Positions 1 to 34,634 of a DNA stretch of 45,993 nucleotides are shown here, piece by piece (position 1 is the first letter of the stretch; the number at the start of each line of letters is the position of its first letter). Under the pieces are notes generated by a model that saw only the letters and a program-made list of their open reading frames with translations, did no database searches and was not told where the DNA came from. The position numbers and the translations under genes are program-made. The stretch covers positions 1 through 45,993 of the forward strand of contig JAMOPY010000025.1 of the NCBI GenBank assembly GCA_027064305.1, written 5' to 3'. The stretch is from Methanobacteriota archaeon (GTDB lineage Archaea > JAADCQ01 > Methanopyri > Methanopyrales > Methanopyraceae).

Positions 1-2276
1 GCGGCGACGGCCTGTCCCAGCGAGAGCCCGCCGTCGCCGGCCGGGACCTCGTGGTGCTCTCGGAGGCCGGGGACGCGCCGCCGGAGCTCGAGCGTGATGA
101 TCTCGTTGTTCATCACGCCGCCGGAGGCGAGGACGGGCTCGCGCTCCCGGTGTTCCTCGATGAGTCGGGCGAAGCCGCGGGCCAGGGCGAGGTGGGCGGT
201 CAGCGCGTAGGCCCGGTCCCCGGTCTCCGCGGCCCGCGCGACGGTCTCGGAGGCGTCGAGCCGGCGGCCGTGCTTTAGCTCGAACTCGGGCTCGGGCGCG
301 TCCTTCACGCGGGCCGCGACGGCCTCGAGCTTCATGGCGGGCTCGCCCTCGTACGTGCGCCTGTAGCAGACGCCCAGGCCGGCGCTGACCGCGTCGAGGA
401 AGCGGCCGGCGCTCGTGGTGAACAGCCGGGGTCGTTCCAGCTGCGACAGCAGGACCTCCAGCTCCCGCTCCCCGTGCTTGAGAGCGTCCGGGCGCTCGCG
501 GAGGTGTCGCTCGAGGAGGTCTCGTATCTCCTCCGGGTCCCGGCCGGCGGCGTGCAGGTGCGCGGCGGTCATGCGCAGGGGGTGGTGGGTGGCCGCGTCG
601 CCGCCGGGCATGGGGACGGGCTCGAGGTGGGCGAGTCGCTCGTAGTCGTCGCCCTCCAGGAGGAGGAGCTCCCCTCCCCAGGCGTTTCCGTCCTCTCCGT
701 ACCCGTATCCGTCCATCACCAGGGCGAGGAGGGGCTCTTCGGCCGGGTTGAGCCCGTGCTCGGCGGCGCAGGCGAGGGCGTGGGCGTGGTGGTGCTGGAC
801 GCGGACGAGCTCCAGGTCGTGCTCCTCGGCCCAGCGCCGGGCGAGCTGGGTGGTGGGAAAGTTGGGGTGCAGGTCGCAGGCGACGGCGTCCACGTCCTCC
901 CAGTCCAGTCGCAGGAGCCGCATCAGGTGCTCCACGGCCCGCTGAAGGAAGTCGAGGGTGGGGGCCCGGCTCGTGTTGCCGATGTGCTGGCTGAGGTACG
1001 CCCGGCCGCGGTGCAGGAGGCAGGCGGTCACGTCCAGCTCGGGCCCGACGGCGACGACGGTGAGGTCCTTCGGGGCCCAGTCGAGCTCGATGGGCTCGGG
1101 CACGTACCCGCGGGAGCGTCGGAGGGGGCGGGGTCTGCCTCCCACCGGGCGGACGACGGAGTCGTCGCAGCGGGCCGCGATCCGGCGGTCGTGGACGAGG
1201 AAGTAGTCGGCGACGCCGCTCAGCCGCCGGAGGGCGTCCCGGTTCCGGATGGCCATGGGCTCACCGGGCGGGTTGGCGGAGGTCATGACGATGGCGGGCT
1301 CGTCGAGGAACCGGCGGAACATGATGTGGTGCAGGCCCGCGTACGGGAGCATGACGCCGACGGTGTGGAGGCCGGGCGCCACGAGGTCGGAGAGCGGGAA
1401 GGGCTCGCGCTTCGGGAGCACGACGATGGGGCGGACGGGTCCGGTGAGCAGCTCCTCGGCCGCCTCGTCCACGCGGGCGAAGGTGCGGACGTCCTCGAGG
1501 GAGCCGGACATGACGGCGAAGGGCTGCTGGGGTCGGTTCAGCCGCTCTCGGAGGCGGCGTACCGGCCCGTCCTCCGTGGTCTTGCACGCCAGGTGGAAGC
1601 CGCCGATCCCCTTGATCGCGACGATGCCTCCCTCCTCGATGATCCGGCAGGCCTCGCGGATGGCGGTCAGCTCGTCGTCCTCCACGACCTCCCCCTCGGC
1701 GTCGAGCAGCCGGTAGCGCGGTCCGCACCTCGGGCAGCAGGCGACCTGGGCGTGGTACCGCCGGTCCTCGGGGTCCTCGTACTCGCGGCGGCACTCCTCG
1801 CACAGTGGGAAGTCGGCCATGGTGGTGTTTTCGCGGTCGTAGGGGATGCCCTCGATGATCGTGAATCTGGGGCCGCAGTTGGTGCAGCCGGTGAACGGGT
1901 AGAGGTACCGCCGGTCCCGGGGGTCGAACATCTCCCGGAGGCAGTCCTCGCAGACGGGGGCGTCCGGTGGGATCTGGAGCTCGACCTCGTCCCGGGCCTC
2001 GCTCCGTTCGATGCGGAAGCCGGAGCCGGGTTCGATCTCCTCGTCGCAGGGCTCGACGCGGACCTCGCGGACGCGGGCGAGCGGTGGGTGCTCGCGCTGG
2101 AGTCGCCGGACGAGCTCGCGGACCTTCTCGCGGTCCGCGAGAACGACGATCTCGACCTCGGAGCCGAGGTTCCGGACGTAGCCGTCCAGCCCCATCTCGG
2201 TGCAGAGCCGGTACGCGAAGGGGCGGAAGCCCACGCCCTGCACGATGCCCCGGACGAGGAGCCTCCAGGCCCTCAT
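1..2276 (-). CDS. hypF: Hydrogenase maturation carbamoyltransferase HypF (3' end runs off the window)
   Basis: Translated by hand from ATG at 2276 (not in the ORF track because there is no stop in the window): MRAWRLLVRGIVQGVGFRPFAYR (acylphosphatase domain), Zn fingers CEDC..YPFTGCTNCGPRF and CEEC..HAQVACCPRCGP, IKGIGGFHLAC, HHHAH, DGYGYGEDG, TSAGRFLDA, and C-terminal PAGDGGLSLGQA. Confidence 0.95.
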   Translation of the reverse strand, partial: MRAWRLLVRGIVQGVGFRPFAYRLCTEMGLDGYVRNLGSEVEIVVLADREKVRELVRRLQREHPPLARVREVRVEPCDEEIEPGSGFRIERSEARDEVELQIPPDAPVCEDCLREMFDPRDRRYLYPFTGCTNCGPRFTIIEGIPYDRENTTMADFPLCEECRREYEDPEDRRYHAQVACCPRCGPRYRLLDAEGEVVEDDELTAIREACRIIEEGGIVAIKGIGGFHLACKTTEDGPVRRLRERLNRPQQPFAVMSGSLEDVRTFARVDEAAEELLTGPVRPIVVLPKREPFPLSDLVAPGLHTVGVMLPYAGLHHIMFRRFLDEPAIVMTSANPPGEPMAIRNRDALRRLSGVADYFLVHDRRIAARCDDSVVRPVGGRPRPLRRSRGYVPEPIELDWAPKDLTVVAVGPELDVTACLLHRGRAYLSQHIGNTSRAPTLDFLQRAVEHLMRLLRLDWEDVDAVACDLHPNFPTTQLARRWAEEHDLELVRVQHHHAHALACAAEHGLNPAEEPLLALVMDGYGYGEDGNAWGGELLLLEGDDYERLAHLEPVPMPGGDAATHHPLRMTAAHLHAAGRDPEEIRDLLERHLRERPDALKHGERELEVLLSQLERPRLFTTSAGRFLDAVSAGLGVCYRRTYEGEPAMKLEAVAARVKDAPEPEFELKHGRRLDASETVARAAETGDRAYALTAHLALARGFARLIEEHREREPVLASGGVMNNEIITLELRRRVPGLREHHEVPAGDGGLSLGQAVA

Positions 2277-3397
2277 ACTCCGAACCGCTCTTCCTGCCAG
2301 TCCTGGTCCTCAAAGTACTCGGAGAGGACCTCGGCGGCGACGCTGGTGGAGACGCCGGTGCGGGCGGCCAGGTGCACGGTGGAGAGGTTCTCGCCGTGGA
2401 CGGCGAGGACGATGGGGAGCTCCCGCTCCGCCCGCTCGGCGTCGGAGGCGGCGTCCACGAGCAGGCTGATGTCCACCTCGTCCTTCCACTTCATCTTCCG
2501 GTTCACGACGCTGCGCTTCGCCAGCTTCTCGGCCACGGAGCCCCCGCGCGGGTGCTTGCTGAGGATGGCCCAGAACCCGCGCTTCAGGACGACCTCCGCG
2601 AGGACCTCCTCGTCGTCCAGCGCCCGCTCGCCGAGCCGCGTGGGCTCGCAGACCTCCGGGTCCGGGTGGACGAGGAGGTACCGGACCAGGGTCTTGTAGT
2701 ACCGCAGGAACGTGCTCTCCGACACGTCCAGCTCGGACATGACGAGCTCCGGGTCGCGCAGCTCGTCCACCAGCTCCAGCGTCTCCATCAGCGACGGTGG
2801 GGACAGCGGGTTGGTCACGTAGGGCTCCAGGGAGAGCCGCACCCGCCACTGGTGCGAGGGGAGGAGCCGCGCGTAGGCGAACCCGTGCACCGAGGCCTCC
2901 ACGAACTCGGCGTAGTCCCGCGGGGCGGAGTTGAGCGTGTACCCGATCGTCCGCCCGAGCACGCTGTTCGAGATCGAGCCCTCGGAGGTCCGGACGAAGG
3001 ACATGTCCGGGCCCGGCTGCCGCCGGATCTCCCCGTCGTTCACCAGGAGCCTGTTCAACCTCCGCAGCGCGCCCTCCAGCGTCCCCGAGTCGTGGACCGC
3101 GGCCTCGACCGGCTCCATCGTGTACTCGCCGAGCACCTCCCGGAACAGGCTCGCCTCCCGCAGGGCCGCGACCGTGAGCATCGCCCCCTCCCTCGGGTTA
3201 CTCAGCCCGGCCAGGATGTCCCGAGCCTTCTCGTACTCCCGGTGCACCAGGAGGGCGGCGGCCGTCGAGATGAGGTACTCGTACTCGTTCGCGATCCGCG
3301 CCTCCCGGATGATCCGCGCCAGCCGCTGATAGAGCGTCTTCACCTTCCGCAGCTCCGAGCGCATCTCCATCAGCGTGGCTATCGCGTCGTGATCCAA
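2273..3397 (-). CDS. Hypothetical 374-aa protein with putative winged-HTH and C-terminal HTH motifs
   Basis: Typical codon usage. TTG start 2 nt after the mmp10 stop, and its stop overlaps the hypF start (ATGA). HTH-like segments PELVMSELDVSESTFLRYYKTLVRYLLV...PTRLGERAL and LSTVHLAARTGVSTSVAAEVL. Confidence 0.75.
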   Translation of the reverse strand: MDHDAIATLMEMRSELRKVKTLYQRLARIIREARIANEYEYLISTAAALLVHREYEKARDILAGLSNPREGAMLTVAALREASLFREVLGEYTMEPVEAAVHDSGTLEGALRRLNRLLVNDGEIRRQPGPDMSFVRTSEGSISNSVLGRTIGYTLNSAPRDYAEFVEASVHGFAYARLLPSHQWRVRLSLEPYVTNPLSPPSLMETLELVDELRDPELVMSELDVSESTFLRYYKTLVRYLLVHPDPEVCEPTRLGERALDDEEVLAEVVLKRGFWAILSKHPRGGSVAEKLAKRSVVNRKMKWKDEVDISLLVDAASDAERAERELPIVLAVHGENLSTVHLAARTGVSTSVAAEVLSEYFEDQDWQEERFGV

Positions 3398-3399
3398 CG

Positions 3400-4647
3400 C
3401 TACTCCCCCATCAGGTTGACCCTTCGGATCAGCTCCTCGAACGCGTTCAGCTCGAACTCGATGACCTCCTCCCGGGTCACCTCACAACTCGCCTCGCCGT
3501 CCAGCGTGAGCCGGTCCGGCCCACGCAGCACGATCCTCTCGAAACCGTCTCGTTTTAACAGTTCCTCCGCCGTGGAATCGTGAACCAGCGCCCGTCCGGG
3601 GAGCACCACCGTCCGCTCCAGCCCGCTCACGTCCAGCCCCCGCAGATCCTCCTCGGTGATCAGGCACGCGACGTCCTTCTCCACCGCCACCACGCTCACC
3701 CGCTCCCCGCCTCGCACGTACCGAAACACCTCCTCCAGCATCGGCGCCGCCACCCGACCCGTGATCAGCGAGCACCGCACCTCCACCTCCGGCAGCAACT
3801 CCCCCAACTCCTCCCCCAGCGACCGCAGCGCGAACGGCGCCCCCGTCTCCGGGTCCCACACCGGCGTGCCCGTCACCCGGAAGGAGAACTCCTCGTGCAC
3901 CTCCGACACGATCCGCCGGAACTCCTCGATCCCGTGCGGCTCCACGTCCAGGACCGGATCGTTGCCCAGGATGATCCCGTGCTCCCGACGCGTCCCCAGC
4001 CGCATCAGCAGGAGCGCGTCGATCCCCAGCTCCTCCAACCACTCGCACGTCTCCCACAGGACCTCCCCGTCGTTCACCCCCGGAATCAGCACGGCCGCCA
4101 CCATCACCTCCCGACACTCGTCCGCGAACACCTCCAACGCCCGCAGCGAGGCCTCGGGCGAGGGATCCCGCATCCACTCCCGCCGCAGCCCCGGGTCCGC
4201 GGCGAAGAGCGTGAACGAGACCGACTCCACGCCCAACCGGCACAGCTCCTCCGCCTCCTCCGGATCCTCGAACCCCTTCCCGCTCGTGTAACCCAGCTTG
4301 AACCTCCGCAGCCCCAGCGCGTCCCGGAGCAGGCCCAGCAGCTCCGGCAACCACGGGTAGTTGCTCACGTCCCCGCCCCCGCTCACCTCCACCAGCCCGT
4401 CCTCCGGCGGGCCCTGCATGGCCACCGTCATGTGCACCGCCTGCAGCACCGCCTGCGGGGGCCGGAAGGGCCCGTGATCCTCCCACACGCGATCCCGGCA
4501 GTACTCGCACCCCACGGTCCCCGGCGGGCAGTGCCGGCACCCGAACGCCCGCTTGCGCCGCCAGTCCACGCCCCGGAAGTAGCAGTACCGGCAGAACCCG
4601 CCGCAGTCGACCCCGGGCCGACCCCCCACGTCCGCCAGTACGGGCAC
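3400..4647 (-). CDS. mmp10: Methanogenesis marker protein 10, B12-dependent radical SAM MCR arginine methyltransferase
   Basis: [20 protein letters not shown] (CX3CX2C), extra [35 protein letters not shown]. Divergent from mcrB as is usual. Start reassigned to GTG at 4647 behind GGGGTGGT. Confidence 0.92.
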
Positions 4648-4798: not shown

Positions 4799-6133
4799 AT
4801 GGCCCGCAGGTTCGAGGACACGGTCGACCTGTACGACGACCGGGGTAACTGCGTCGCCGAGGACGTGCCCATCGAGGTGCTCTCCCCGATGCGGAACGAG
4901 GCGATCCAGAGCATCGTCCGGGACATCAAGCGCACCGTGGCGGTCGACCTGGAGGGGATCGAGAACGCGCTCCGGAACGCCGCGGTCGGCGGCAAGATGA
5001 TGAAGATCCCGGGCCGCGAGCTGGACGTGGACGTGGTGGACAACGCCGAGGCGATCGCGGACAAGGTCGAGGAGATGATCCGCGTCCACGAGGACGACGA
5101 CACGAACGTCGAGCCCATGTACGACGGTAAGCGACTCCTGGTCCAGCTCCCGACCGAGCGCGTGGAGGTGATGGCGGACCCGTACGCCGGCACCATGCAG
5201 GCCGGCATGGCCGTCGTGCACGCGATCATCGACGTGTGCGAGGTGGACATGTGGGACGCGAACATGGTCAAGGCGGCCGTCTTCGGCCGGTACCCGCAGA
5301 CGATCGACTACCACGGCGGTAACGTCTCCTCCATGCTGGACGTCTCGATGAAGCAGGAGGGCGTGGGCTACGCGCTGCGGAACGTCATGGTCAACCACAT
5401 CGTGGCCGCCACGCGGAAGAACGCGATGCAGGCCGTGTGCCTGGCCGCGACCCTGGAGCAGACCGCCATGTTCGAGATGGGCGACGCGCTGGGCCCGTTC
5501 GAGCGCCTGCACCTGCTGGGCTACGCGTACCAGGGCCTGAACGCGGACAACATGGTCTACGAGATCGTGAAGAAGCACGGCAAGGAGGGCACCGTCGGCT
5601 CCGTCGTTCGCGAGGTCGTGGAGCGCGCGCTCGAGGACGGCGTGATCGAGGTTAAGGAGGAGCTGCCGTCCGGCTTCAAGGTCTACAAGGCCAACGACAT
5701 GGACCTCTGGAACGCGTACGCCGCGGCCGGCCTCGTCGCCGCGGTCATGGTCAACCAGGGTGCGGCCCGCGCCGCCCAGGGCGTCAGCGCGACGATCCTG
5801 TACTACAACGACCTGCTCGAGTACGAGACCGGGCTTCCGGGCGTCGACTTCGGCCGCGCCCAGGGTACCGCGGTCGGCTTCAGCTTCTTCAGCCACTCGA
5901 TCTACGGGGGCGGCGGCCCGGGTATCTTCAACGGCAACCACATCGTGACGCGGCACTCGAAGGGCTTCGCGATCCCGCCCGTGGCCGCGGCGATGGCCCT
6001 GGACGCCGGCACCCAGATGTTCAGCCCGGAGGTCACCAGCAAGCTGATCGGCGACGTGTTCGGCGAGATCGACGAGTTCCGCGAGCCGATGAAGTACATC
6101 ATGGAGGCCGCCGCCGAGGAGGCGAAGCGCTAA
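4799..6133 (+). CDS. mcrB: Methyl-coenzyme M reductase beta subunit
   Basis: [49 protein letters not shown]; 444 aa. Confidence 0.99.
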
Positions 6134-6144
6134 GGGTCCCGCCC

Positions 6145-6183
6145 CCGCACGCCCCCGGCCAATCGTTACGAAACTCGTAACGA
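6145..6183 (+). repeat. Intergenic ~40-bp element with palindrome TCGTTACGA-AAC-TCGTAACGA (copy 1)
   Basis: CCGCACGCCCCCGGCCAA-TCGTTACGA-AAC-TCGTAACGA; matches the reverse complement of 28802-28841. Confidence 0.9.
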
Positions 6184-6196
6184 GGGGGTCGACCCC

Positions 6197-6760
6197 GTGC
6201 CCGAGCGCGAGCGCCCCCGCCTGCTCGAGCGCCGGGTGCCCAAGGGGGCCAAGCCCGAGATCCAGATCTTCCCGGAGCGCCTCCTCAGCGCCAAGACCGT
6301 GGAGCGGCTGCTCAACGCGATCGTCGAGCGCGTCGACGGCATCGGCCGCATCGTCCTCCACGGGCCCGGCCTCCCCAAGGTCGTCCCCTTCGGCCCCGCC
6401 CGCGGCGAGCCCGTCAAGCACCCCGAGCGACGCCCCATCCGGATCCAGGACGAAGAGGTCCCCATGAAGGTGCAGACCGGGCAGATCATCATCGAGGTGG
6501 AGGACGAGGAGCGCCTCGACGAGATCACCGCGCAGATCGAGGAGATCTGCCGGGAGATCCTCCCCTGCGACTTCCAGGTCCAGACCGGGCGCTTCACCCG
6601 ACACCGCCCCACGGTGACCGACTACCTCAAGTTCGGGGAGAAGGGCGTGAAGGAGCTGGACGACCGCCTCCTGGGCCTCGTGGAACCCCGCGCCCGACTG
6701 TCGGACCGGGTGTCGATCCTAAAGGCGAGGAGGAACGAGGAGGAAGAGGACGAGAAGTAA
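6197..6760 (+). CDS. mcrD: Methyl-coenzyme M reductase operon protein D
   Basis: [46 protein letters not shown]; located after mcrB. Confidence 0.97.
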
Positions 6761-10073: not shown

Positions 10074-10087
10074 CAACCTTTTTAAAC
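10074..10087 (+). promoter_or_regulatory. Putative TATA promoter of the mtr operon (T-run could also terminate mcr)
   Basis: CAACCTTTTTAAAC in the mcrA-mtrE spacer. Confidence 0.6.
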
Positions 10088-14052: not shown

Positions 14053-15021
14053 TTGTTCTACTTCCCGGGTAAGGAGCAGAAGGTGGTGGACATCTGCGGG
14101 GTGAAGATCGGGGGTCAGCCCGGAGAGTACCCGACGGTGCTCGCCGGCACGATGTTCTACGCCGGGCACAAGATCGTGAAGGACGAGGAGAAGGGCGAGT
14201 TCGACGAGGAGAAGGCCGAGGAGCTCATCAAGATGGAGGAGGAGCTGGCCGACGAGACCGGTAACCCGATGATGGCGCACATCATGGCCGAGTCGGAGGA
14301 GGCCATGATCCGGTACCTGGACTGGGTCGCCGACGTGACCGACGCGCCCATCATCGTGGACTCCACCGAGGCCAACGTGAAGATCGCCGCGGTCAAGCAC
14401 GCGCAGGAGGTCGGCCTGGCCGAGCGGATCGTGTACAACTCGATCAACGCGTCCGCCGAGGACGAGGAGATCCAGGCGATCAAGGAGTCCGACTGCAACT
14501 CCGCCATCGTCCTGGCCTTCAACCCGATGGACTCGTCCATCGAGGGGCGCCTGAAGATCCTCACGGAGGGCGAGGAGGGCGTCTCCGAGCAGGGCATGCT
14601 GGAGATCGCCGACGAGTGCGGCATCGAGAACCCGCTGATCGACACCGCCGCCACGCCGTTCGGCTCGGGTGCGGGCCAGTCCGTGAAGGCCGTGATCGCG
14701 GTCAAGGCCAAGCTAGGCCTGCCCGTCGGCGGAGCGCCGCACAACATCCCGTCCGCCTGGGACTGGATGCGGGAGCTGAGGAAGAAGCTCCGCGAGGAGG
14801 GCAGGGAGGACTGGGCCAAGATGATGTGGGAGTCCGTGGACTGGGGCTCCAACATCCTCGAGAACATCCTAGGGGCCGACTACCTGCTCTTCGGACCCAT
14901 CGAGAACGCGCCGGCCATCTGGGCGGCAGCGGCGATGATCGACGCGCTGATCGCCGAGGCCAACGAGGACATCGGCATCGAGCCGCAGGTCGAGGACCAC
15001 CCGGCCAACATCGTCCGCTAG
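14053..15021 (+). CDS. mtrH: H4MPT:CoM methyltransferase subunit H
   Basis: KIGGQPGEYPTVLAGTMFY, YNSINAS, HNIPSAWDW, FGPIENA. Confidence 0.98.
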   Translation: MFYFPGKEQKVVDICGVKIGGQPGEYPTVLAGTMFYAGHKIVKDEEKGEFDEEKAEELIKMEEELADETGNPMMAHIMAESEEAMIRYLDWVADVTDAPIIVDSTEANVKIAAVKHAQEVGLAERIVYNSINASAEDEEIQAIKESDCNSAIVLAFNPMDSSIEGRLKILTEGEEGVSEQGMLEIADECGIENPLIDTAATPFGSGAGQSVKAVIAVKAKLGLPVGGAPHNIPSAWDWMRELRKKLREEGREDWAKMMWESVDWGSNILENILGADYLLFGPIENAPAIWAAAAMIDALIAEANEDIGIEPQVEDHPANIVR

Positions 15022-16277
15022 TCCCCACGTCCCCACAGTCCCCTTTTCTTCACCTCCCCCAGCACCTCCCGCGCGTACCGCACCACGTACGGGTTCTCGT
15101 CCGAGAAGCGCCCCTCGTACCGCCGCAGCGTCTCCTCGATCCGTTCCCAGCACTCGTCCGGCACCCGACCCGTCGTTGCGTCCCACCCCAGCAGGTTCTT
15201 CACCCGCTTCAACCACTCCGACGCGCCCTTCGCCCCGTGCCTCAGCATCGCCTCGATCCACTCCTCGTTCGCCAGCTTCTGATCCACCAACCGCCGCAGC
15301 TCCTCCTCGATCGACCGCGTGAGCACCCGGTTCGGGTCCGTCACGTCGTGATGGTAACACTCCACCCGCTCCCCCGAGAGCTCCTCCGCCGCCGCGACCA
15401 TCCCCCCGTGGAACGCGAAGTGGCAGCAGCAACCGAGGAGATCCCACTCGTGCGAGGACTGCGCGACCGACACCGCCCGCACGTTGGACAGCGCCCGCTC
15501 GAACTCCTTGAAGGCCTCCTCGCCGAACGCGTCCCGACCGTAGGCGTACCCACCCCACCGCACGTACACCCGCGCCAGGTCCGACCGATCCTCCCACGCG
15601 GACGCGTGCACGGCGTAGTTCACGCCCGCCCCGTACGCCCCCGGCGGGTCTCCGAAGACGCGGTGACCGCCCCCGTGCCGCCTCACGAAGTTCTCCTCCT
15701 CCGACTCGTCCCGGTTCCGAACCAGCTCGAACGCCTCATCGAGGAGCTCGATCAGGTTCGGGAACGCGTCCCGGAACATCCCGCTGATCCGGACCACCAC
15801 GTCCACCCTCGGCCGGCCCAGCTCCTCGACCGGGACCACCTCCAGCCCCCGAACCACGCCCGCTCCATCCCACCGGGGCCGCACGCCCAGCAACCACAGG
15901 ACCTGCGCCAGCACCTCACCGCCCGTCCGCATCACGTCCGACGCCCAGAGCACGATCCCCACCGCGCGCGGGTACCCGCCCCGATCCTCCCGGTACCGCT
16001 CCAGCGTCCTCTCCGCGAGCCGCCGGCCCACCCGCCAGGCCCGCCGGGTCGGCACCTTCCGCGGGTCCACCGAGTAGAAGTTCTTGCCCGTGGGCAGGAC
16101 GTCCACGTCGCCCCGCGTGGGGTTGCCCGAGGGACCCGGCTCGACGAACCGCCCCTCGAGCGCCCTCACCGTAACCTCCAGCTCCCGCTCGCACGCGAGC
16201 AGCCGGCGGAGCACCGAGCGCGCGAACTCCCGGGCCTCCTCCGGGACCGCCTCCCGCACGCGCTCCTTAAGATCCAA
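15018..16277 (-). CDS. cobN: CobN/ChlH-type chelatase large subunit, C-terminal half
   Basis: LEGRFVEPGPSGNPTRGDVDVLPTGKNFYSVDP, LGRPRVDVVVRISGMFRDAF, RVFGDPPGAYGAGV, NEEWIEAMLRHG, GWDATT. Probable TTG start at 16277 after GGCGGGGT. Confidence 0.88.
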   Translation of the reverse strand: MDLKERVREAVPEEAREFARSVLRRLLACERELEVTVRALEGRFVEPGPSGNPTRGDVDVLPTGKNFYSVDPRKVPTRRAWRVGRRLAERTLERYREDRGGYPRAVGIVLWASDVMRTGGEVLAQVLWLLGVRPRWDGAGVVRGLEVVPVEELGRPRVDVVVRISGMFRDAFPNLIELLDEAFELVRNRDESEEENFVRRHGGGHRVFGDPPGAYGAGVNYAVHASAWEDRSDLARVYVRWGGYAYGRDAFGEEAFKEFERALSNVRAVSVAQSSHEWDLLGCCCHFAFHGGMVAAAEELSGERVECYHHDVTDPNRVLTRSIEEELRRLVDQKLANEEWIEAMLRHGAKGASEWLKRVKNLLGWDATTGRVPDECWERIEETLRRYEGRFSDENPYVVRYAREVLGEVKKRGLWGRGD

Positions 16278-16310
16278 ACCGGACCCCGCCCGCACGTCGT
16301 ACCACGAAAC

Positions 16311-16324
16311 GTTACTAAGGTAAC
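16311..16324. promoter_or_regulatory. Palindrome GTTAC-TAAG-GTAAC in the divergent cobN promoter
   Basis: Inverted repeat at the centre of the 73-nt AT-rich gap between the two cobN halves. Confidence 0.5.
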
Positions 16325-16350
16325 ACCGAATAAGCCTTGAGGGGGTCACC

Positions 16351-18417
16351 GTGCGAGCCCTCTGCGTGTGCTCCCGCGTCATGCTCCGGGCCGCCCGGCG
16401 CGTGGCCGAGCGACTCCCCTTCGACCTCGAGGTGGCGACCCAGGACGACGCGCCCGAGTCCGGGGACTACGACCTGATCGTCCTGCTCCGCGTCACCCGG
16501 CCCGTCGTCCCGGACGAGAGCGCGGAGATCGTGGCCGTGCCCGTCGACGGCTCCACCGGGGTTCAGTCCCTGAACACCGTGCCCGACCGGGTCGTCGACC
16601 GCGTGCGGGAGTACGTGGAGTACGGCGGGGAGCGGAACCTGGAGCACGCCCTCCGCTACCTGGCGAGCGAGGTGCTCGGGCTGGACCTGGGGTACGAGCC
16701 CCCGGAGGAGCGACCGTGGGACGGCCTGTACCACCCGGATCGCGGCCCGCTGGAGGGGCCGCCCGGGCCCTCCGACCGGGAGACGGTCGGGGTCTACCTG
16801 AGCCGGGAGATGTGGGTCTGGGGCTGCACCGACGTCCCGGACCGGCTGATCCGGGAGGTCGAGCGCGCGGGCGGTCGGGCCCTGGGCGTGTTCACCAGGC
16901 CGGGCCGCGGGCGCCCGCTGGACGAGCTCCTCACGGTGGACGGGGAGCCGGTCGTGGACGCGCTGCTGGTCGTCAAGAAGCCCTCCTTCAAGCGGGGGTA
17001 CGAGCGGGGTTTCGAGGCGCTCCGCCGGCTCGGTGTGCCCGTGATCAACGCGGTGATCTCCTGGTACCGGTCCCGGGGGGAGTGGCGCGAGTCGGAGCAG
17101 GGGCTGGGCCCGGGCGACCTGGCGTACGGGGTCGCGATGGGCGAGCTGCAGGGTCGGGTCGATCCGATTCCGGTCGGGTTCAAGGCCGAGGACGGCTACG
17201 AGCCGGAGCCCGGGCGGTGCCGGCTGGCGGCCCGGCGGGCGCTGCGCTGGGCCCGGTTGCGTCGGAAGCCGCCGGGGGAGCGCCGCGTGGCGGTCGTCCT
17301 GAACAACGGGATCTGCTCGCAGGGGGAGGCCGGGATCGGGTCGGCGATGGGGTTGGACACGTTCGAGAGCCTGGCCCGGTTGCTGCGGCGGCTGCGGGAG
17401 GAGGGGTACCGGCTGGACTGGGTGCCGGAGGACGGTCGGGAGCTGGAGCGGGAGTTCTTCCGGCGGCGGGCGTTCAACGAGTTCAAGGGCACGACCGTGG
17501 AGGACATCCTGGCCGCGGGCGGCGCGGTGGATCTGGTCCCGCTGGATCGGTACCTGGAGTGGTTCGAGGAGTTGCCGGAGGAGCTGCGGGAGCGGATGGT
17601 GGAGGAGTGGGGTGAGCCGCCCGGGGACGCGATGGTGGTGGACGACTGCATCGTGATCGCGGGGATCCGGACGGGGAACGTGTTCCTCGGGGTGCAGCCG
17701 AAGCGGGGGTGCGCCGGGACGGAGTGCAGCGGGGAGGTCTGCAGGATCCTGCACGATCCGCACTGTCCGCCGACGCACCATTACTACGCCTTCTACCGGT
17801 GGATCCGGGACGAGTTCCGGGCGGACGTGCTCCTGCACGCGGGGACGCACGGGACGGTGGAGTGGCTGCCGGGGAAGTCGGTGGGGTTGTCCGAGGCGTG
17901 CTGGCCGGAGGTCTGCGTCGGGGACCTGCCGGTCGTGTACTGGTACATTGTGAGCAACCCGTCCGAGGGCACGCAGGCGAAGCGGCGCGGGTACTCGACG
18001 CTCGTGGATCACTGCCCGCCGCCGCTGGGGGAGGCGGAGGCGGGGGTGAGGGAGCTGGAGGAGCGGCTGGAGGAGGCGGAGCGGTCGGGAGAGGTGGACC
18101 CGCGGTTGTTCGAGGAGTGGGAGGCGCGGGCGGGCGCGTTCATCGAGAGGGGACTGCACGTGATCGGGGAGCCGCCGCGGGATCCCGGGCTGCTCTCGGA
18201 GTTCCTGTACGCGCTCTGCCGGAACCGGCTGCGGGAGCTGATCGCCCGGGAGCTGGGGGTGGACCTGGGGAAGGCGCTCGAGCGCCCCGGGGAGGAGAGC
18301 GAGCTGGGGGTCACGAATCGGGAGCTCGTTCGGGCGATCGATGAGGTGGTCCGGGAGGTGTGTGAAGGGGTGGTGGAGGAGGAGCTCGGGTCCGAAAGGG
18401 ATAATCCGGTCGGGTGA
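16351..18417 (+). CDS. cobN: CobN/ChlH-type chelatase large subunit, N-terminal half
   Basis: GLYHPD, WARLRRKP, IGSAMGLDT, GNVFLGVQPKRG, HDPHCPPTHHYYAFYRW, HAGTHGTVEWLPGK, NPSEGTQAKRRG, GLHVIGEPP. SD GAGGGGGT. Confidence 0.9.
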   Translation: MRALCVCSRVMLRAARRVAERLPFDLEVATQDDAPESGDYDLIVLLRVTRPVVPDESAEIVAVPVDGSTGVQSLNTVPDRVVDRVREYVEYGGERNLEHALRYLASEVLGLDLGYEPPEERPWDGLYHPDRGPLEGPPGPSDRETVGVYLSREMWVWGCTDVPDRLIREVERAGGRALGVFTRPGRGRPLDELLTVDGEPVVDALLVVKKPSFKRGYERGFEALRRLGVPVINAVISWYRSRGEWRESEQGLGPGDLAYGVAMGELQGRVDPIPVGFKAEDGYEPEPGRCRLAARRALRWARLRRKPPGERRVAVVLNNGICSQGEAGIGSAMGLDTFESLARLLRRLREEGYRLDWVPEDGRELEREFFRRRAFNEFKGTTVEDILAAGGAVDLVPLDRYLEWFEELPEELRERMVEEWGEPPGDAMVVDDCIVIAGIRTGNVFLGVQPKRGCAGTECSGEVCRILHDPHCPPTHHYYAFYRWIRDEFRADVLLHAGTHGTVEWLPGKSVGLSEACWPEVCVGDLPVVYWYIVSNPSEGTQAKRRGYSTLVDHCPPPLGEAEAGVRELEERLEEAERSGEVDPRLFEEWEARAGAFIERGLHVIGEPPRDPGLLSEFLYALCRNRLRELIARELGVDLGKALERPGEESELGVTNRELVRAIDEVVREVCEGVVEEELGSERDNPVG

Positions 18418-27494: not shown

Positions 27495-28784
27495 GTGGAG
27501 CGGTACGTCGGGATCCGGGCCCGCCTCATCAAGCGGGGAGTCGGCGGCACCTGCCGCGAGCGCGTCGAGGACTTCCTGGTCATGGAGAAGCCCACCGAGC
27601 ACACCTACGTGCCCCTCACCCTCGTCGGCGAGTGCCCCGAGTGCCGGGAGTACCACCGGGGCCGCACCTGCCCCGACTGCGGGGCCCGCCTGAGGCGCCA
27701 CCGGCTCCACCCCCAGCTCACGGTCCGGCGCCCGCACACCGTCTTCCACCTGGAAAAGTACGACTGGGACACGCTCAAGGCCGTTCGCCGCATCGCCCGG
27801 GCCCTCCACCGACCCCACCGCCACTTCGGGATCGCCGGGATGAAGGACAAGCGGGCCGTGACCGCCCAGCGCGTGAGCGCCCGCGGGGTCCCGCCGGACT
27901 CCCTCCTCCGAGTTCGGGTCCGAGACCTCCGGATCATCCCCGTCGGCGGGGCCCGGCGCAAGCTGCGCCCGGGCGACCTCTGGGGCAACCGGTTCGTGAT
28001 CACCGTGCGCGGGGCCGACGCCCGCCGCGTGGACGGGCCCCTCGCGCGCGTGCGGGAGCTGGGGGGCGTGCCCAACTACTTCGGCCTGCAGCGGTTCGGC
28101 AGCCGGAGGCCCGTGACCCACGTCGTCGGGCGGTACGTGATCCGGGAGGATTGGGAGCGGGCCGTGAAGGTCTTCCTCACCCTGGAGTACCCCCGCGAGT
28201 CCGAGGAGGCGATCGAGGCCCGCCGGTGGCTCAGGGAGCACTGGGGGGAGTTCCGGGAGGCGCTCCGGCGCTTCCCCCGCTTCCTGGACTACGAGCGCCA
28301 GATCCTGCGGCACCTGGCCCGGCACCCGGACGACTACATCAACGCCTTCCGCCGCCTGCCGATGTGGATCCGGAGGATGTTCGTGCACGCGTACCAGTCC
28401 TACCTGTACAACCTGATCCTCTCGGAGCGGCTCGCCCGCGGCCTGCCGCTGGATCGGCCCGTGGAGGGGGACATCGTCCGGGACGGCCTGCCCACCGTGC
28501 CGCTCCCCGGCTACCGGACGCGGCTCAGCGAGGGGGAGCCGGGGGAGATCGAGCGGGAGGTGCTGGAGCGGGAGGGGATCTCACCGGAGGACTTCCGGGT
28601 CCCGTCCATGCCGGAGCTGTCCGCCGGGGGCGATCGGAAACCCGCCCTGCTCCGAGTCTACCGGTTGAGGGCCGAGGTGCTCCGGGGGGACGTCGTCCGG
28701 TTCCGGTTCTCGCTGCCCCGGGGCGGGTACGCGACCACGGTGCTACGGGAGCTGATGGGCTCGGGCGGGGTCTACGCCGACTAG
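27495..28784 (+). CDS. truD: tRNA pseudouridine(13) synthase TruD with a Zn-ribbon insertion
   Basis: EDFLVME, GIAGMKDKRAVTAQ, GDLWGNRFVI, PNYFGLQRFG, MFVHAYQSYLYN, FSLPRGGYAT. Confidence 0.95.
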   Translation: MERYVGIRARLIKRGVGGTCRERVEDFLVMEKPTEHTYVPLTLVGECPECREYHRGRTCPDCGARLRRHRLHPQLTVRRPHTVFHLEKYDWDTLKAVRRIARALHRPHRHFGIAGMKDKRAVTAQRVSARGVPPDSLLRVRVRDLRIIPVGGARRKLRPGDLWGNRFVITVRGADARRVDGPLARVRELGGVPNYFGLQRFGSRRPVTHVVGRYVIREDWERAVKVFLTLEYPRESEEAIEARRWLREHWGEFREALRRFPRFLDYERQILRHLARHPDDYINAFRRLPMWIRRMFVHAYQSYLYNLILSERLARGLPLDRPVEGDIVRDGLPTVPLPGYRTRLSEGEPGEIEREVLEREGISPEDFRVPSMPELSAGGDRKPALLRVYRLRAEVLRGDVVRFRFSLPRGGYATTVLRELMGSGGVYAD

Positions 28785-28801: not shown

Positions 28802-28841
28802 TCGTTACGATACTCGTAACGATTGGACCGGGGGCGTGCGG
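28802..28841 (-). repeat. Intergenic ~40-bp element with palindrome (copy 2)
   Basis: Minus strand reads CCGCACGCCCCCGGTCCAA-TCGTTACGA-GTA-TCGTAACGA. Confidence 0.9.
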
Positions 28842-28843
28842 CG

Positions 28844-29008
28844 CTAGTACTCGTAGAAGGCGGCGCTACCGCACTCCTCGCACAGCCCCGCGAACTCCAG
28901 CTTCCGTCGCCTCTTCACCGCCTTCTTGTACTCCTCCTTCGTGCAGTTCGGGCAGACGATCGCCGGGTCGTTCGGTGAGACTATAGGCACGTGCGAGCTC
29001 TTTACCAT
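28844..29008 (-). CDS. Small 54-aa putative Zn-finger protein
   Basis: MVKSSHVPIVSPNDPAIVCPNCTKEEYKKAVKRRRKLEFAGLCEECGSAAFYEY. SD GGGGTGAGG; TATA-like CTTTTTAC at about 29043-29050. Confidence 0.7.
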   Translation of the reverse strand: MVKSSHVPIVSPNDPAIVCPNCTKEEYKKAVKRRRKLEFAGLCEECGSAAFYEY

Positions 29009-29069: not shown

Positions 29070-30095
29070 GTGAGCGAGGTGCTGGAGCGGCTCATCCGCG
29101 GGGAGGACCTCTCCCGGCGGGAGGCGCGGGAGCTGATGAGCCGGATCGTGGGTGGGGAGCTGTCCGAGGTGCAGGTGGCCGGCATCCTGGTCGCGCTGCG
29201 CTGCAAGGGGTACGCGCCCGAGGAGCTGGCCGGGTTCGTGGAGGGGATGATGGAGCACGCCGTCCGCGTGCGGCCCAGCGTGGACGCGCTCGTGGACACG
29301 GCGGGGACCGGGGGTGACCGGCTGGACACGTTCAACGCCAGCACGCTGGCGGGGCTCACGGCCGCGGCCGCCGGCGTGCCGGTGGCGAAGCACGGGAACC
29401 GGAGCGTGACGAGCTCGTGCGGGAGCGCGGACCTGATGGAGGCGCTGGGCGTGAACCTGGACGCGGGGCCCGAGGTGGTGGAGCGGTGCATCGAGGAGGC
29501 GGGGTTCGGGTTCATGTTCGCCCCGCGGTACCACCCGGCGATGCGGAACGTCATGCCCGTGCGCCGGGAGCTGGGCGTGCGGACGGTGTTCAACGTGCTC
29601 GGACCGCTGACCAACCCGGCCCGGGAGGCGCTCACGGGTCAGGTGGTGGGAGTGTACTCGGAGCGACTGCTGGGGCTGGTGGCGGGCGCCCTAGCGGAGC
29701 TCGACGTCGAGCGGGCCGTGGTGGTGTACGGGGTGGACGGGGTGGACGAGCTCAGCGTGACGTGCGAGAACAAGGTCGTGTACGTGGAGGACGGGGAGGT
29801 GGAGGGGCCGGATACGATCGCCCCGGAGGACGTGGGGCTGGACCGGGCGGAACCGGAGGACGTGGCCGGTTCGGGCCCGCGGGAGGCGGCGGAGGAGGCG
29901 CGGGAATTGCTGAGCGGTAACCTGCCGCAGGATCACCCGAAGGTGCAGATGACGGCATTCAACGCGGGGGCGGCGCTCTTCGTGGGGGGCGCGGTGGACT
30001 CGATCGAGGAGGGCGTGGACCGGGCGTTGGAGGCGATCGAGGAGGGGGAGCCGGGGCGCGTGCTGGAGCGGGTGGTGGAGCTGTCCCGGGGCTAG
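29070..30095 (+). CDS. trpD: Anthranilate phosphoribosyltransferase
   Basis: [51 protein letters not shown] at 29070. Confidence 0.96.
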
Positions 30096-33000
30096 CCGCC
30101 GTACTCCTCGATGTAGTCCTCCGGCTTCGGCGGCTCCGGCTTCAGCCCCTTCCGCTCCCGGATCTCCCGGATGATGTCCTCCTCCATGTCCTCCGGGACG
30201 CGCTCGTACCCGGCGTGCTCCGTGGTCCAGATCGCGCGGCCCTCCGTCGCGGACCGGATGTCGTTCGCGAAGCCGAACATCTCGGCGACCGGCGCCTTGG
30301 CCTTGATGATGACCGTGTCACCCTCCTGCTGGATGTCCTCGATCGTACCGCGCCGGTTCTGGATCTCCTTCGTGACCGCGCCCATGTAGTCCTGCGGGAC
30401 GGTCACGTACACGTACTGGATGGGCTCCAGCAGGTGCGTGTCCGCCAGGAGCATGCCCCCGTAGATCGCCTTCTTGATCGCCGGGATCACCTGGGCCGGG
30501 CCGCGGTGCACCGGGTCCTCGTGGATCTCCGCGTCCGTCAGGATGACCTTCACGCCGCGGCACGGCTCCTTGGCCAGCGGACCCTCCTCCATCGCCTCCT
30601 CGAAGCCCTCCACCAGCAGCTCCATGACCTCGTTCAGGTACTGCACGCCCACCGTCTTGTCCAGGAAGAAGTTCGTGCCCTTCACCGCCTCCACGGCCTT
30701 CGCGTCGTCCCGGTCCATCCCGTGCTCGATCAGCGCCTCCTCCAGCTCCTTTTGCTTCATCTCCTCCGGGTTGATCTGACCCTCCTCGATGGCCTCGATG
30801 ATCTCCTCCTCCACGGGCTCGATCGTCACGTAGAACCGGTTGTGCTTGTTCGGGGACTTGCCCTCCACCTCGTCATCGCAGACGCCGAACACGCCCTCCC
30901 GGTACACCACGATCGGCTCGGACACCTTGATGTCCACGCCGCGCTCCTTGATCCGGTGCGCGATGATCTCCAGGTGCAGCTCGCCCATGCCCGAGACCAG
31001 GTGCTGCCCCGTCTCCTCGTCGATCTTCACCTCGACCGTCGGATCCTCCTTCGCGATCTGGTGCAGGATCTCGATCAGCTTGGGCAGATCCTTCGTGTTC
31101 TTGGCCTCCACCGCGACCGTCACCACCGGCTCCGCGAAGTGCTTCAGCTCCTCGAACGGCTCGATCGGGTCCTCCGGATCCGTGACCGTCTCGCCCGCCC
31201 ACACGTCCCGCAGACCCGTCACCGCCGCGATGTTACCCGCCGGCACCTCGTCCGTCCGGATCCGGTCCGGACCCATGTAGATGCCCACCTGCTGCACCCG
31301 GTCCTCCCGCTGCGCGCTCGCCAGGTAGACCTCCTGACCCTCCCGGATCGTGCCCGAGTACACGCGGCCCGTCGCCACCTCGCCCGCGTGCTCGTCGATG
31401 CGCACGTCCGTCACGACCATCGCCAGCTTCCCGTCCGGGTCGCACTTCCGCAGCATCTTCCCGTCCTCACTCTCCGGATCACCCGGCCAGATCTGCTCGA
31501 TACGGTACTCCTGCGCCGTGACCGGGTCCGGCAGGTGCTTCACGACCATGTCCAGCACGACCTGGTACACCGGGGCCTCCTGCGCCAGCTCCTTCTGCGC
31601 GTCCGGACCCTCCTGACACGCCTCGATGATGTCCTTGAACGTGATCCCCGTCTTCTCCATGAACGGGTAGCTGATACCCCAACCGTAGTACGCGCTACCG
31701 AACGCGACCGAACCGTCCTCCACGCTCACCTTCCACTCGTCCCGGAACTCCTTCGGCGCCATCTGCTCGATCATCTTGTTCACCTCGGTGATGATCTCCA
31801 TGAACCGCTGCTGCATCTCCTCCGGGCTCAGCTTAAGCTCCGTGATCAACCGGTCCACCTTGTTGATGTACAGGACCGGCTTCACGCGCTCCCGCAGCGC
31901 CTGCCGAAGCACGGTCTCCGTCTGCGGCATCACACCCTCGACCGCGCAGACGACCACGATCGCACCGTCCACGGCCCGCATCGCCCGCGTCACGTCACCC
32001 GAGAAGTCCACGTGACCCGGCGTGTCGATCAGGTTGATCAGGTACTCCTCACCCTCGTACTCGTGCACCATGCTCACGTTCGCCGCGTCGATGGTGATGC
32101 CCCGCTCCTGCTCCATCTCGTCGAAGTCCAGGACGAGCTGATCGCCCGCCAGCTCCTCCGAGATCATCCCCGCACCGGCCAGCAGCTGGTCGGACAGCGT
32201 CGTGTTGTGCACCACGAACCCGTCCGCTGCGAAGTTATGATGCCCCTCGACCGTGAAGTCGTACACGTAACCCTCGTACTCGACCTCCTCGACGCGCACC
32301 ACCTCCAGGAAGCACACGTCGTCCTTGGCCAGCGCCCTCAGCCTCTCGAGCGCCTCACCCTCGACCCCGGCCTCCTCCAGGGTGCTGATCACCTTCTCGA
32401 GGCTCGACTTAGTCAGGCCCACCTGGTCGCCCTCGTAGTTCGAGTAACCGTTGAACATCCTCGTGGTTGGAACGTCACCGCGAACCTCCCGGAGGACCTC
32501 ACCGCTGATCGGCACCCGCTCGAGCTCCGAGGACGACGCCTTCTCCATCAGTTTCTTCAGCTTCTTCGCCTTCTCGGGCTCCCGGAAGCCCGGGAACCTC
32601 TCGAGCGACCGGGCGCCCGACACGTACAGGGTGTAGGCACCGTCCTCCTCCCTGAGGTAGCTGGCCACGTCAAACTTCTGCAGGAGGAGCTGGAGGTCCT
32701 CCAGGAACTCCCGGCTCACGGAGGTCACCGAGACCGCGCTCCGGCCCTCCTCCACGGTGCCGTCCGCGTCGAAGTACCCGCGGATGAACTCGGCGATGCA
32801 GTCCAGCGGCGCCCTGGCCAGGAAGTCGTTGACCCGGATCCTGTGGGCCTTCTTCCTCCTCGGGTAGTCGAAGAGTGCCTCCAGGAGCCTCGGAACGGTC
32901 TCCGGGAAGTCGATCCTCTCGGTCGCGTCCTCGTACTCCCTGACCTTGACCTCTAGTCCCATGTCCCTCGCGATCCTCTTCACTTCCTCCAGGATGGCCT

Positions 33001-33871
33001 CGGATCCGTTGGTGAGCTGGTTCCAGCACCCGTCACCGAACATGAGACCCGCCAGGTAGAACAGGTCCTCGGGTTCGGGCAGCCGGATGGGCTTCGTCGA
33101 CTTGGCGTTCGACCGGTAGGAGACCTCGACGGCGTCGTAGAGGTCCGCTAGATCGATGCCCAGCTCCTCCGCCAGGTCGACGAGGATGTCGGCCCGGATC
33201 CGACCCTTCCGCAACTGGTAGTAGAAGGAGTTCTCCTTGATGTCCACCTCCAGCTCTTCCCACAGCGCCTTAATGCCGCGCTCCTTGGCCAGCTCGAGAA
33301 CGCTCTCCGCCTCCTCTTCCGGTAGGTGGACGAAGAAGTTCCTTCCGAGTCTGCGGAACACCTCGCGCTTGAGCTCCTCCTCGCTCATCCCTTCGTGGAC
33401 CAGCTTCTGGGTGCACACGATGTAATCTCCGACCTCCAGCTCGTCGGCCCTCTTCTCGACGATCTCGCCCGAGGGGTCCAGGACGAGGAACTTGTGCTCC
33501 GGGGTCGTGCGGATGCTCCTACCGTTCTTCACCTCGACCTCCACGAGCTTGTCCGCCTTCAGGCGCCACACGTGCGTGATCTCGCCCTTCACGATCTCCA
33601 CGGAGTCCTTGTCCAGGGAGGAGACCTCGACGGGCTCCTCCAGCTCGTAAACCTCCTCGTTCTCGTCACGCTTCACGAGCCTGCCGCGCTCCTTCAGCTC
33701 CTCGAACAGCTCGTCGGCCCGGACGAACCGGCCGTCCGCCAGGCAGATCTTGGTCTCCGGGGCCACGCACTTGCCGTGGTCGATGTGGGCGATGATGCCG
33801 ATGTTTCGGATCTTCTCCGGCTCGGTCATCAGCTCGCGGCACTTCTGGGCCATCTTCTCCTTACGGCCCAC
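30092..33871 (-). CDS. fusA: Elongation factor 2 precursor containing an intein
   Basis: [14 protein letters not shown]|intein|[23 protein letters not shown], diphthamide region [11 protein letters not shown]. Start is GTG at 33871 or 33880. Confidence 0.98.
32204..33769 (-). mobile_element. Intein with LAGLIDADG homing endonuclease (522 aa) in the EF-2 P-loop
   Basis: N-terminal CVAPET, block B TPEHKF, endonuclease motifs [10 protein letters not shown] and [11 protein letters not shown]-terminal VYDFTV..HNF..GFVVHN followed by Thr(+1). Confidence 0.97.
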
Positions 33872-33910
33872 GGGGGACACCCCCGGCTTCGGGCCGGCCC
33901 GTAGTCGAAA

Positions 33911-33927
33911 TGGATAAAAAAATAGTG
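33911..33927 (-). promoter_or_regulatory. T-rich tract after rps7: fusA TATA and/or terminator
   Basis: CACTATTTTTTTATCCA on the minus strand, followed by the small hairpin CCGGC-CCGAA-GCCGG before the SD. Confidence 0.5.
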
Positions 33928-33929
33928 GC

Positions 33930-34634
33930 TTACCGTGAGGCCTCGGCGATGCGCTCGATCTCCTCCTTCTTCTGGATCGAGTAGCAGTCGGTGTCGTACT
34001 TCGCGGCCGCGATGATCTCCTCGGCCAGGCACTCCTCCACGGGCTTGGGGTTTCGGAAGGCGCGCTGCTGGGTGCCCTCCGCGATGAATCGTAGGGCGAG
34101 GTCGACGCGGCGCTGTGGGGAGCAGTCCACGGCCTCGTGGTACGTGATACCTCCGTAGATGATGCGCGTGGTCTCCTCGCGCGGGGCCGCGTTCTCCACG
34201 GCCTGGACGAGGACCTGGATGGGGTTCTCGCCCGTGCGCTCGTGGATGATGTCGAACGCCTTCTTCACGATCTTGTACGCCAGGTGCTTCTTGCCCGTGT
34301 TCTTCTGCGTGCGCATCAGCTTGTTCATGAGTCGCTCGACGATGGGGACCTCGGACTTCGCGAACCGCTTCTTGGCGTGACGGCCGCCGGTGTGCGGTAG
34401 GTACGTGGGCTTGAGGCAGATGTAGTCCCGGAGGCCCGGGTCCCGGACCTCCACCTCGGTGGGGTCCCACTTGCCGAAGACCTTCATCCGGTTGAGGTTC
34501 TCCAGGTACGGGTTGCCCTCCAGGTCGGAGTAGACGACCTTCCAGCGGCGGGCGCTGGCCTCCATTCCGGGTTCCTCGGTCTCGGTGGCCTCCTCCTCGG
34601 TGGCCTCGGTCTCGGCCTCCGGCTCCTCCGCCAT
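33930..34634 (-). CDS. rps7: 30S ribosomal protein uS7
   Basis: [50 protein letters not shown] at 34634. Confidence 0.97.

Follow-up and report, generated by a model that had tools for sequence, protein, structure and literature searches.

A palindromic hairpin motif within the mcr operon of a Methanopyri-type archaeon belongs to a published motif family and recurs behind protein, tRNA, and RNase P RNA genes

A perfect palindrome located between two genes of an operon may act on DNA, may act on RNA, or may be a repeat that is tolerated there, and the locus described here raises this question within the operon of a key methanogenesis enzyme. The window analyzed, i.e., the whole stretch of 45,993 nt (contig JAMOPY010000025.1 of assembly GCA_027064305.1), is a methanogen core region with hypF, mcrBDCGA, mtr genes, SepSecS, TruD, and an intein-containing EF-2 gene, and additionally holds genes for ribosomal proteins, NusA, RNA polymerase subunits, and Rad50. 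One palindromic element lies between mcrB and mcrD and a second one lies elsewhere in the window. An earlier note on this DNA had described the two as a dispersed element located just after genes, and this description is borne out as genuine by the wider comparison.

The two sites are confirmed to be copies of one short palindromic hairpin motif (Table 1). The core palindrome comprises 21 nt, composed of a 9-nt arm, a 3-nt spacer, and a complementary 9-nt arm, and a covariance model of the family scores 45.7 bits at copy 1 and 43.7 bits at copy 2, the latter on the − strand. Both copies are present where the earlier note had placed them, and over their lengths of 39 and 40 nt they differ, as it had also claimed, solely by one inserted T and the spacer. 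A chance origin of the pair is ruled out by shuffle counts: the 21-nt pattern with up to three mismatches yields two matches in the window against a mean of 0.00 in 100 dinucleotide shuffles, and the looser pattern CGTTA-N7-11-TAACG yields two matches against 0.02 expected. Perfect 9-bp hairpins with loops of 3–8 nt number 5 in the window and 3.7 in Markov controls, and the only pair among these five to share the same arm is formed by copies 1 and 2. The exact 9-mer occurs four times in the window, always inside the two elements; with one mismatch it occurs 7 times against 4.8 expected, a count reached by 22 of 100 shuffles, and is not enriched. A general inverted-repeat scan of the window returned 288 pairs, mostly G+C palindromes, and was uninformative, and Rfam gave no match in the window at the gathering score. 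The 8-mer YCACGCCC occurs 25 times in the window against 10.4 expected, and related boxes precede the hairpin in most copies behind protein genes. Similar C-rich boxes are also observed 3′ of several stop codons of the window, both with and without a hairpin, and therefore C-rich 3′ UTRs seem to be general in this lineage.

Table 1. Coordinates of the two hairpin elements and of adjoining features in the window
Feature	Position	Strand	Remarks
mcrB stop codon (TAA)	6131–6133	+	ORF 4799–6133; Pfam MCR_beta, MCR_beta_N
Copy 1, C-rich 5′ box	6145–6158	+	Box identical in copy 2
Copy 1, CCAA linker	6159–6162	+	AA before stem nearly invariant in family alignment
Copy 1, core palindrome	6163–6183	+	Arm 6163–6171, loop AAC 6172–6174, arm 6175–6183
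G-run after 3′ arm, likely mcrD ribosome-binding site	6184–6189	+	Role inferred
mcrD, GTG start	6197–6760	+	Pfam MCR_D, E 3.7e-52
TruD gene, convergent	27495–28784	+	Pfam TruD, E 9e-119; ends 17 nt from copy 2 hairpin
Copy 2, core palindrome	28802–28822	−	Arm 28822–28814, loop GTA 28813–28811, arm 28810–28802
Copy 2, 5′ flank	28823–28841	−	C-rich box 28841–28828, TCCAA 28827–28823
54-aa Zn-ribbon ORF	28844–29008	−	Stop 28846–28844, 2 nt before copy 2

Both window copies are intergenic, and no tRNA gene is found in the window. The distance of at most 11 nt between a stop codon and the start of the element, as given in the earlier note, is confirmed, with 11 nt at mcrB and 2 nt at the Zn-ribbon ORF; 13 nt separate the hairpin of copy 1 from the GTG start of mcrD. 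The Zn-ribbon ORF shows a coding-type GC pattern (0.51/0.42/0.87) and matches small zinc-finger proteins weakly, at sub-threshold Pfam scores only. Copy 2 occupies a 59-nt spacer in which this ORF and TruD converge, an arrangement that the earlier note had overlooked. At the other end of the Zn-ribbon ORF, its ATG on the − strand overlaps the in-frame ATG of a trpD-like gene on the + strand at 29006–29008, back to back, so that no more than one of these starts can be preceded by a promoter. Nothing was seen to connect the element with the HTH proteins of the window that the earlier note had suggested for binding assays, and at an E cutoff of 1e-6 ORF 2273–3481, noted as HTH, is without a match in Pfam. 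Two further peculiarities of the window were observed. The EF-2 gene (30095–34264, − strand) is split by an intein that carries a LAGLIDADG endonuclease domain, and two CobN/Mg-chelatase-like ORFs lie on opposite strands (15021–16466, − strand; 16324–18414, + strand), one matching the C-terminal part of the profile only and the other the N-terminal part only, and, taken as stop-to-stop frames, have overlapping 5′ ends.

The earlier note had not recognized the palindrome as a described element; the same palindrome has been published for Methanopyrus kandleri AV19. In that BMC Genomics article of 2017 (PMC5217627), CGTTA-N9-TAACG is listed as “tRNA downstream” and lies ~10 bp downstream of about half of the tRNA genes; its supplementary tables give 34 copies, 97% of them in intergenic positions, as well as variants with changes on both sides of the inner stem, and GTTAT-N7-ATAAC is over-represented alongside CGTTA-N7-CGTAA. 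The authors regarded the motif as specific to M. kandleri and speculated that it is the target of a tRNA 3′ maturation enzyme. By these figures, only about half of the 34 copies can be located behind tRNAs. CGTTA and TAACG, the pentamer pair used in PMC5217627, are present in the arms of the window copies with 9 nt between them, and both copies are intergenic and belong to the Methanopyrus lineage as the published ones do; neither lies ~10 bp behind a tRNA gene. The window element is a member, in new contexts, of this published, functionally uncharacterized motif family, and its occurrence behind protein genes and RNase P RNA, and in three further Methanopyri-type MAGs, extends the printed description. 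Text searches of the literature gave no other paper on the palindrome among the matches listed; the main text of Su et al. (2013) on small RNAs of M. kandleri is silent on the motif, and a study of internal operon terminators in M. maripaludis (PMC10450193) mentions neither mcr nor hairpins.

The distribution of the family was assessed by one genome scan with the exact arms over 596 Gb, which returned 46 loci. Fourteen are from three Methanopyri-type MAGs (JAMOPO 5, JBDOKE 5, JAADCQ 4), 14 represent one orthologous promoter site of the Halorubrum type, 8 represent one orthologous coding site in Prevotella/Segatella, and 10 are unrelated singletons. Loci outside Methanopyri amount to ~12 independent events vs. 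~9 expected by our own arithmetic for 596 Gb, and matches above chance are confined to Methanopyri-type MAGs. The genome-wide search proposed in the earlier note has thus provided 14 further Methanopyri-type loci; one of them, L031, shares 97.1% identity with the window across 5.9 kb and has the element in its mcrB–mcrD spacer as well. No record titled M. kandleri is among the 46 loci, and the pentamer pairs printed in PMC5217627 suggest that the inner stem in AV19 differs from the scanned arms. A fuzzy search of the fetched flanks identified four further, degenerate copies, and, with L002 left out as an assembly duplicate of L027, the alignment comprises 19 non-redundant copies. Run across 205,798 nt, the covariance model added no convincing copy to these 19 and the duplicate in L002; its best additional matches are L009 7546–7577, where a contig ends (E 0.002), and L036 15544 (E 0.04). 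At the gathering score, Rfam gave no match at the hairpins in 11 loci. The genes upstream of the copies in L038 (463 aa) and L008 (459 aa) were considered as orthologs and their comparison shows that they are not.

The Halorubrum-type palindrome (L004 10001–10021; also L006, L012, L013, L017, L019, L023, L025, L033, L034, L037, L040, L041, and L045) is located between divergent genes for an Lrp/AsnC-type regulator and a carA-like protein, beside an A+T-rich box, and looks like an operator unrelated to the Methanopyri family. The Prevotella/Segatella palindrome (L003, L018, L020, L022, L029, L030, L042, and L044) is apparently intragenic, with flanks identical across species.

Every family copy with a clear neighbor is located 3′ of a tRNA, RNase P RNA, or protein gene. 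All seven tRNA genes in the fetched Methanopyri-type loci have a copy 7–12 nt after the encoded CCA, a count in which four of the genes had prompted retrieval of their loci and three were found in the flanks, with degenerate copies. An RNase P RNA gene, which scores 87.1 bits in Rfam at a threshold of 84, is followed by a copy at a distance of ~25 nt, and copies behind protein genes lie 17–39 nt after stop codons, the genes being those for mcrB (twice), thermosome, DHQS-II (3-dehydroquinate synthase II), polyferredoxin, DUF505 (twice), radical SAM, TruD, and several unknown proteins. Five of the 19 copies lie between convergent genes, i.e., copy 2, the tRNA-Gly/DUF505 copies in L007 and L021, the RNase P/radical SAM copy in L007, and that in L043, and behind two copies there is an A+T-rich box resembling the next promoter. 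Copy 1 is located inside an operon, as is its ortholog in L031, and the copy in L024 may be as well. A run of T residues following the hairpin is absent at copy 1, at copy 2, and at the tRNA copies, no T-run is seen near the tRNA genes that bear a hairpin, and in three copies a short T-rich run precedes the hairpin. Within the window, ordinary T-runs are used after mcrA, mtrH, S7, and rpoA″, including a seven-T run between the S7 and EF-2 genes (~33910–33930, − strand) and a five-T run after mcrA, right before mtrE (~10075–10085, + strand). As to T-runs and hairpins being alternative gene-end signals, with crude gene calls that include spurious ORFs, a T-run is found at 1 of 12 hairpin-bearing ends vs. 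6 of 98 others, and these counts are uninformative, T-runs not being rarer at hairpin ends.

Two observations concern the sequences beside the hairpins. Beside orthologous hairpins in two MAGs (L009 914–1075 and L028 523–668, the latter with a masked run of N at ~573–582), ~170 nt of non-coding sequence is ~71% conserved and may represent an unannotated RNA gene, with no Rfam match at E up to 1. Furthermore, the 3′ end and trailer of tRNA-Gly in L007 (9975–10005) resemble the C-rich box and linker of the window copies (window positions 6140–6165) in sharing CCGCAC, CCCGG, and AA, in this order; by this likeness, which is G+C-rich and may be due to chance, the flank behind the protein gene might be derived from a tRNA tail.

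Conservation of the element was evaluated behind tRNA-Gly(UCC), where the JAMOPO and JAADCQ loci are ~71% identical and the tRNA end, a GAA, and both arms are invariant, with the loop flipped from GGT to ACC. Invariant arms amid diverged surroundings suggest purifying selection, and the conserved arms claimed in the earlier note are thereby substantiated as a sequence kept between distant genomes. Since the arms are conserved in sequence and not merely in pairing, a sequence-specific protein partner is suggested; for the same reason, the invariant arms in these genomes offer almost no covariation to prove pairing. The degenerate copies nevertheless keep pairing, through one double change from C-G to T-A (L001 13407) and two T·G wobbles, which pair on the sense strand only. 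The element is additionally polar: read in the direction of the upstream gene, the stem has AA before it at 11 of 11 independent oriented loci and TT behind it at 2 of 11 (Fisher p 2e-4), which is not expected of a fully symmetric DNA site. Taken together, the conserved arms, the pairing kept in degenerate copies, and the polarity suggest that the sequence itself is recognized and that the role is tied to one strand.

On this basis, the reading that we prefer, at a rough probability of 0.42, is that the element is a transcribed, protein-recognized 3′-end hairpin that serves to form or protect RNA ends. The element would be transcribed by read-through as the tail of the upstream gene, i.e., a tRNA, RNase P RNA, or certain mRNAs, and the transcript would fold into a 9-bp stem with a 3-nt loop and AA in front. 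A lineage-specific and probably dimeric protein would read the sequence of the stem, and the bound hairpin would define or protect the 3′ end through either termination-coupled cleavage or a block of 3′-to-5′ decay; on stable RNAs, the hairpin would later be trimmed off. Entry of transcription into the element is indicated by small-RNA data of AV19, in which the H/ACA RNA Nr5 continues from the ACA box into arm 1 and stops in a T-rich stretch; if Nr5 really ends as listed, inside the loop, arm 2 is absent from that RNA. The same data contain ordinary C-rich 3′ ends with a T-run, including those of 3′-UTR small RNAs. Copy 1 is predicted to fold as a 9-bp hairpin. The naked core hairpin has a predicted ΔG of −9.8 kcal/mol at 37°C and of 0 at ≥90°C, in line with the weak RNA stem at high temperature that the earlier note had anticipated. 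An additional outer helix was considered and rejected: its own flanks yield −17.15 kcal/mol vs. −16.88 for swapped flanks, 7223 of 20000 permutations do as well, and with shorter flanks 1498–4472 of 20000 permutations equal the real pairs. The apparent pairing arises from composition, C-rich upstream and G-rich downstream.

One rival explanation is a double-stranded DNA site for a dimeric or tetrameric protein, acting as a roadblock, a bidirectional terminator, or an architectural or topoisomerase-type site. The reading had been preferred in the earlier note, and several features are indeed natural for it. A free-looking loop beside a strictly conserved stem is more typical of DNA palindromes, and a loop that changes from GGT to ACC between orthologs appears to go unrecognized; a naked RNA stem is weak at ≥90°C; the listing of the AV19 H/ACA RNA ends before arm 2; a symmetric block in the short convergent spacers of 5 of the 19 copies would serve both sides; and the Halorubrum copy between the Lrp/AsnC-type gene and carA is naturally read as an operator. 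The near-palindromy of each arm, to which the earlier note had drawn attention, holds for the window arms and fails in AV19, where the inner arm varies, so that self-symmetry of the arms is not conserved. Single 9-mer half-sites are not enriched in the window, and the 3′-end placement and the polar AA flank (11/11 vs. 2/11) fit a DNA site poorly. From known polymerase footprints, moreover, a protein block only 7–12 nt after a tRNA 3′ end would probably stall the polymerase inside the tRNA, too near for a roadblock, and a block 13 nt before mcrD, within mcrBDCGA, would cut off mcrG and mcrA from their promoter. A protein block on DNA is accordingly less likely than the transcribed hairpin and is, in our estimate, improbable.

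The other rival, which is serious and to which we give a similarly low chance, is a REP-like or miniature copied repeat, selfish or neutral, that is tolerated only just after genes and whose RNA effect is incidental. REPs classically lie behind genes and in the spacers of operons, and the mcrB–mcrD junction can be seen as an ordinary junction with an insert of ~48 nt. The spacer, which the earlier note had taken to be free, is not: when each loop is grouped with its reverse complement, 16 independent loci occupy 8 of 32 classes, with 15 coincident pairs vs. 3.7–5.4 expected, a number reached in 26–500 of 100000 simulations, and this clustering implies that copies share descent. Likewise, the 5′ flanks of copies 1 and 2 are identical over 18 nt except for one T, whereas the L031 ortholog, from a 97%-identical genome, differs from the copy 1 flank at 5 positions in ~27 nt and resembles the L024 flank of its own MAG. 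The copy 2 flank thus matches copy 1 better than the ortholog of copy 1 does, and these likenesses within genomes, together with the loop classes, are signs of gene conversion or of another kind of copying between DNA sites. Arms that are identical at orthologous sites across ~71%-identical genomes are unlike those of species-specific REPs, however, and the copies are few (2 in the 46 kb analyzed here, 34 in AV19) and single throughout, never in inverted pairs. A scan of 31 ORFs of the window and 21 of the flanks revealed no transposase of any kind, and the fixed distance at 7/7 tRNA genes is unexplained by a neutral insert. A copied repeat of this kind is also compatible with an effect at the RNA level. 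In sum, the wider evidence favors what the earlier note had listed as alternatives, i.e., a termination or processing signal or a tiny mobile repeat.

A role as a tRNA 3′-maturation signal, as speculated in PMC5217627, with the window copies as non-functional strays, is very improbable, since the placement behind about half of the AV19 tRNA genes and all seven in the fetched loci, at 7–12 nt, is outweighed by a window that contains neither a tRNA gene nor an Rfam RNA, by at least 11 of 19 copies that follow protein genes, RNase P RNA, or unknown neighbors, by conservation of the mcrB copy in a second genome, and by RNase Z of two other methanogens, for which, according to PMC7479834, the acceptor stem suffices and no trailer signal is required after the encoded CCA.

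For the transcribed hairpin, the mcrB–mcrD junction provides the most specific setting. It is an ordinary junction of stop, G-run, and GTG into which ~48 nt are apparently inserted, and other gene junctions of the window have the same G-rich run ~8 nt upstream of a GTG start. Because mcrG and mcrA are located downstream in the same operon, copy 1 is not a full terminator; the space of 13 nt before the mcrD start likewise leaves no room for a promoter. The hairpin would most likely delimit the mcrB segment, as a boundary of processing or of stability. In the minimum-energy fold of the region, the G-run pairs with the C-run of the 5′ box, and such pairing would hide the putative ribosome-binding site of mcrD. 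Lowered expression of mcrD and mcrC, as envisaged in the earlier note, is therefore difficult to attribute to termination, given mcrG and mcrA downstream, and more defensible as occlusion of the ribosome-binding site; locally, the effects easiest to defend would be reduced translation of mcrD and a protected mcrB segment.

A more ambitious extension, which we regard as unlikely in its full breadth, is that Methanopyri possess a second, oligo-U-independent end signal for all stable RNA genes and chosen mRNAs, operated by the hairpin and a dedicated protein, possibly with a handover to a CPSF73-type nuclease; within the mcr operon, such a system would set the ratio of McrB to McrD/C, and it would be an archaeal counterpart of the histone stem-loop. 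To our knowledge, termination and 3′-end formation in archaea are known almost only via U-tracts and the aCPSF1/FttA nuclease. An element of 21 nt frozen across Methanopyri offers a testable handle on 3′ ends in very G+C-rich hyperthermophiles, in a culturable organism in which one oligonucleotide would serve for pull-downs and one motif for 3′-end mapping. Furthermore, the printed view of the motif as tRNA-specific and confined to one species is corrected, and a candidate regulatory boundary is placed inside the operon of a key methanogenesis enzyme.

Several known systems resemble the element in part. REP/BIME sequences are likewise short extragenic palindromes located after stop codons and between operon genes, with homogeneity within a genome, and they protect upstream mRNA from 3′ decay and bind proteins. 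The Methanopyri element differs in being far rarer, in arms that are conserved across genera, and in its fixed spacing to tRNAs. Hundreds of copies and inverted pairs, as in REP/BIME, are not seen, the family comprising 19 single copies in 206 kb chosen for them, and a Y1-type transposase gene is not found among the 52 ORFs scanned in the window and the flanks. REPs also carry a conserved 5′ head tetranucleotide next to the palindrome; this head is absent from the Methanopyri flank, which is AA, as CCAA or GAA. Archaeal oligo-T terminators occupy the same place just after genes, whereas copies 1 and 2 and the tRNA copies lack a T-run following the hairpin. The archaeal CPSF73 homolog, which terminates transcription, has been reported to work with U-tracts (PMC7515710 and PMC8716108), and these are absent at the Methanopyri hairpins. 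The element does not have the form of an intrinsic terminator, as five of nine stem pairs are A-T and G-rich or mixed sequence follows, nor that of a promoter operator, as all oriented copies are located after genes. The 3′ stem-loop of eukaryotic histone mRNAs, which has a dedicated binding protein and is associated with cleavage by CPSF73, offers an analogy only: it is also a short, sequence-conserved stem-loop located a few tens of nt behind the stop codon, whereas the loop is not conserved in the Methanopyri family, and for this family the binding protein and cleavage are proposals. Finally, although the window copies depart from the description of the AV19 tRNA-downstream palindrome in that they follow mcrB or the Zn-ribbon ORF/TruD, carry a C-rich 5′ box, and in one case lie within an operon, they share with it the same pattern, an intergenic location, and the same lineage, and their relatives in the fetched loci are found, as in AV19, closely behind tRNAs.
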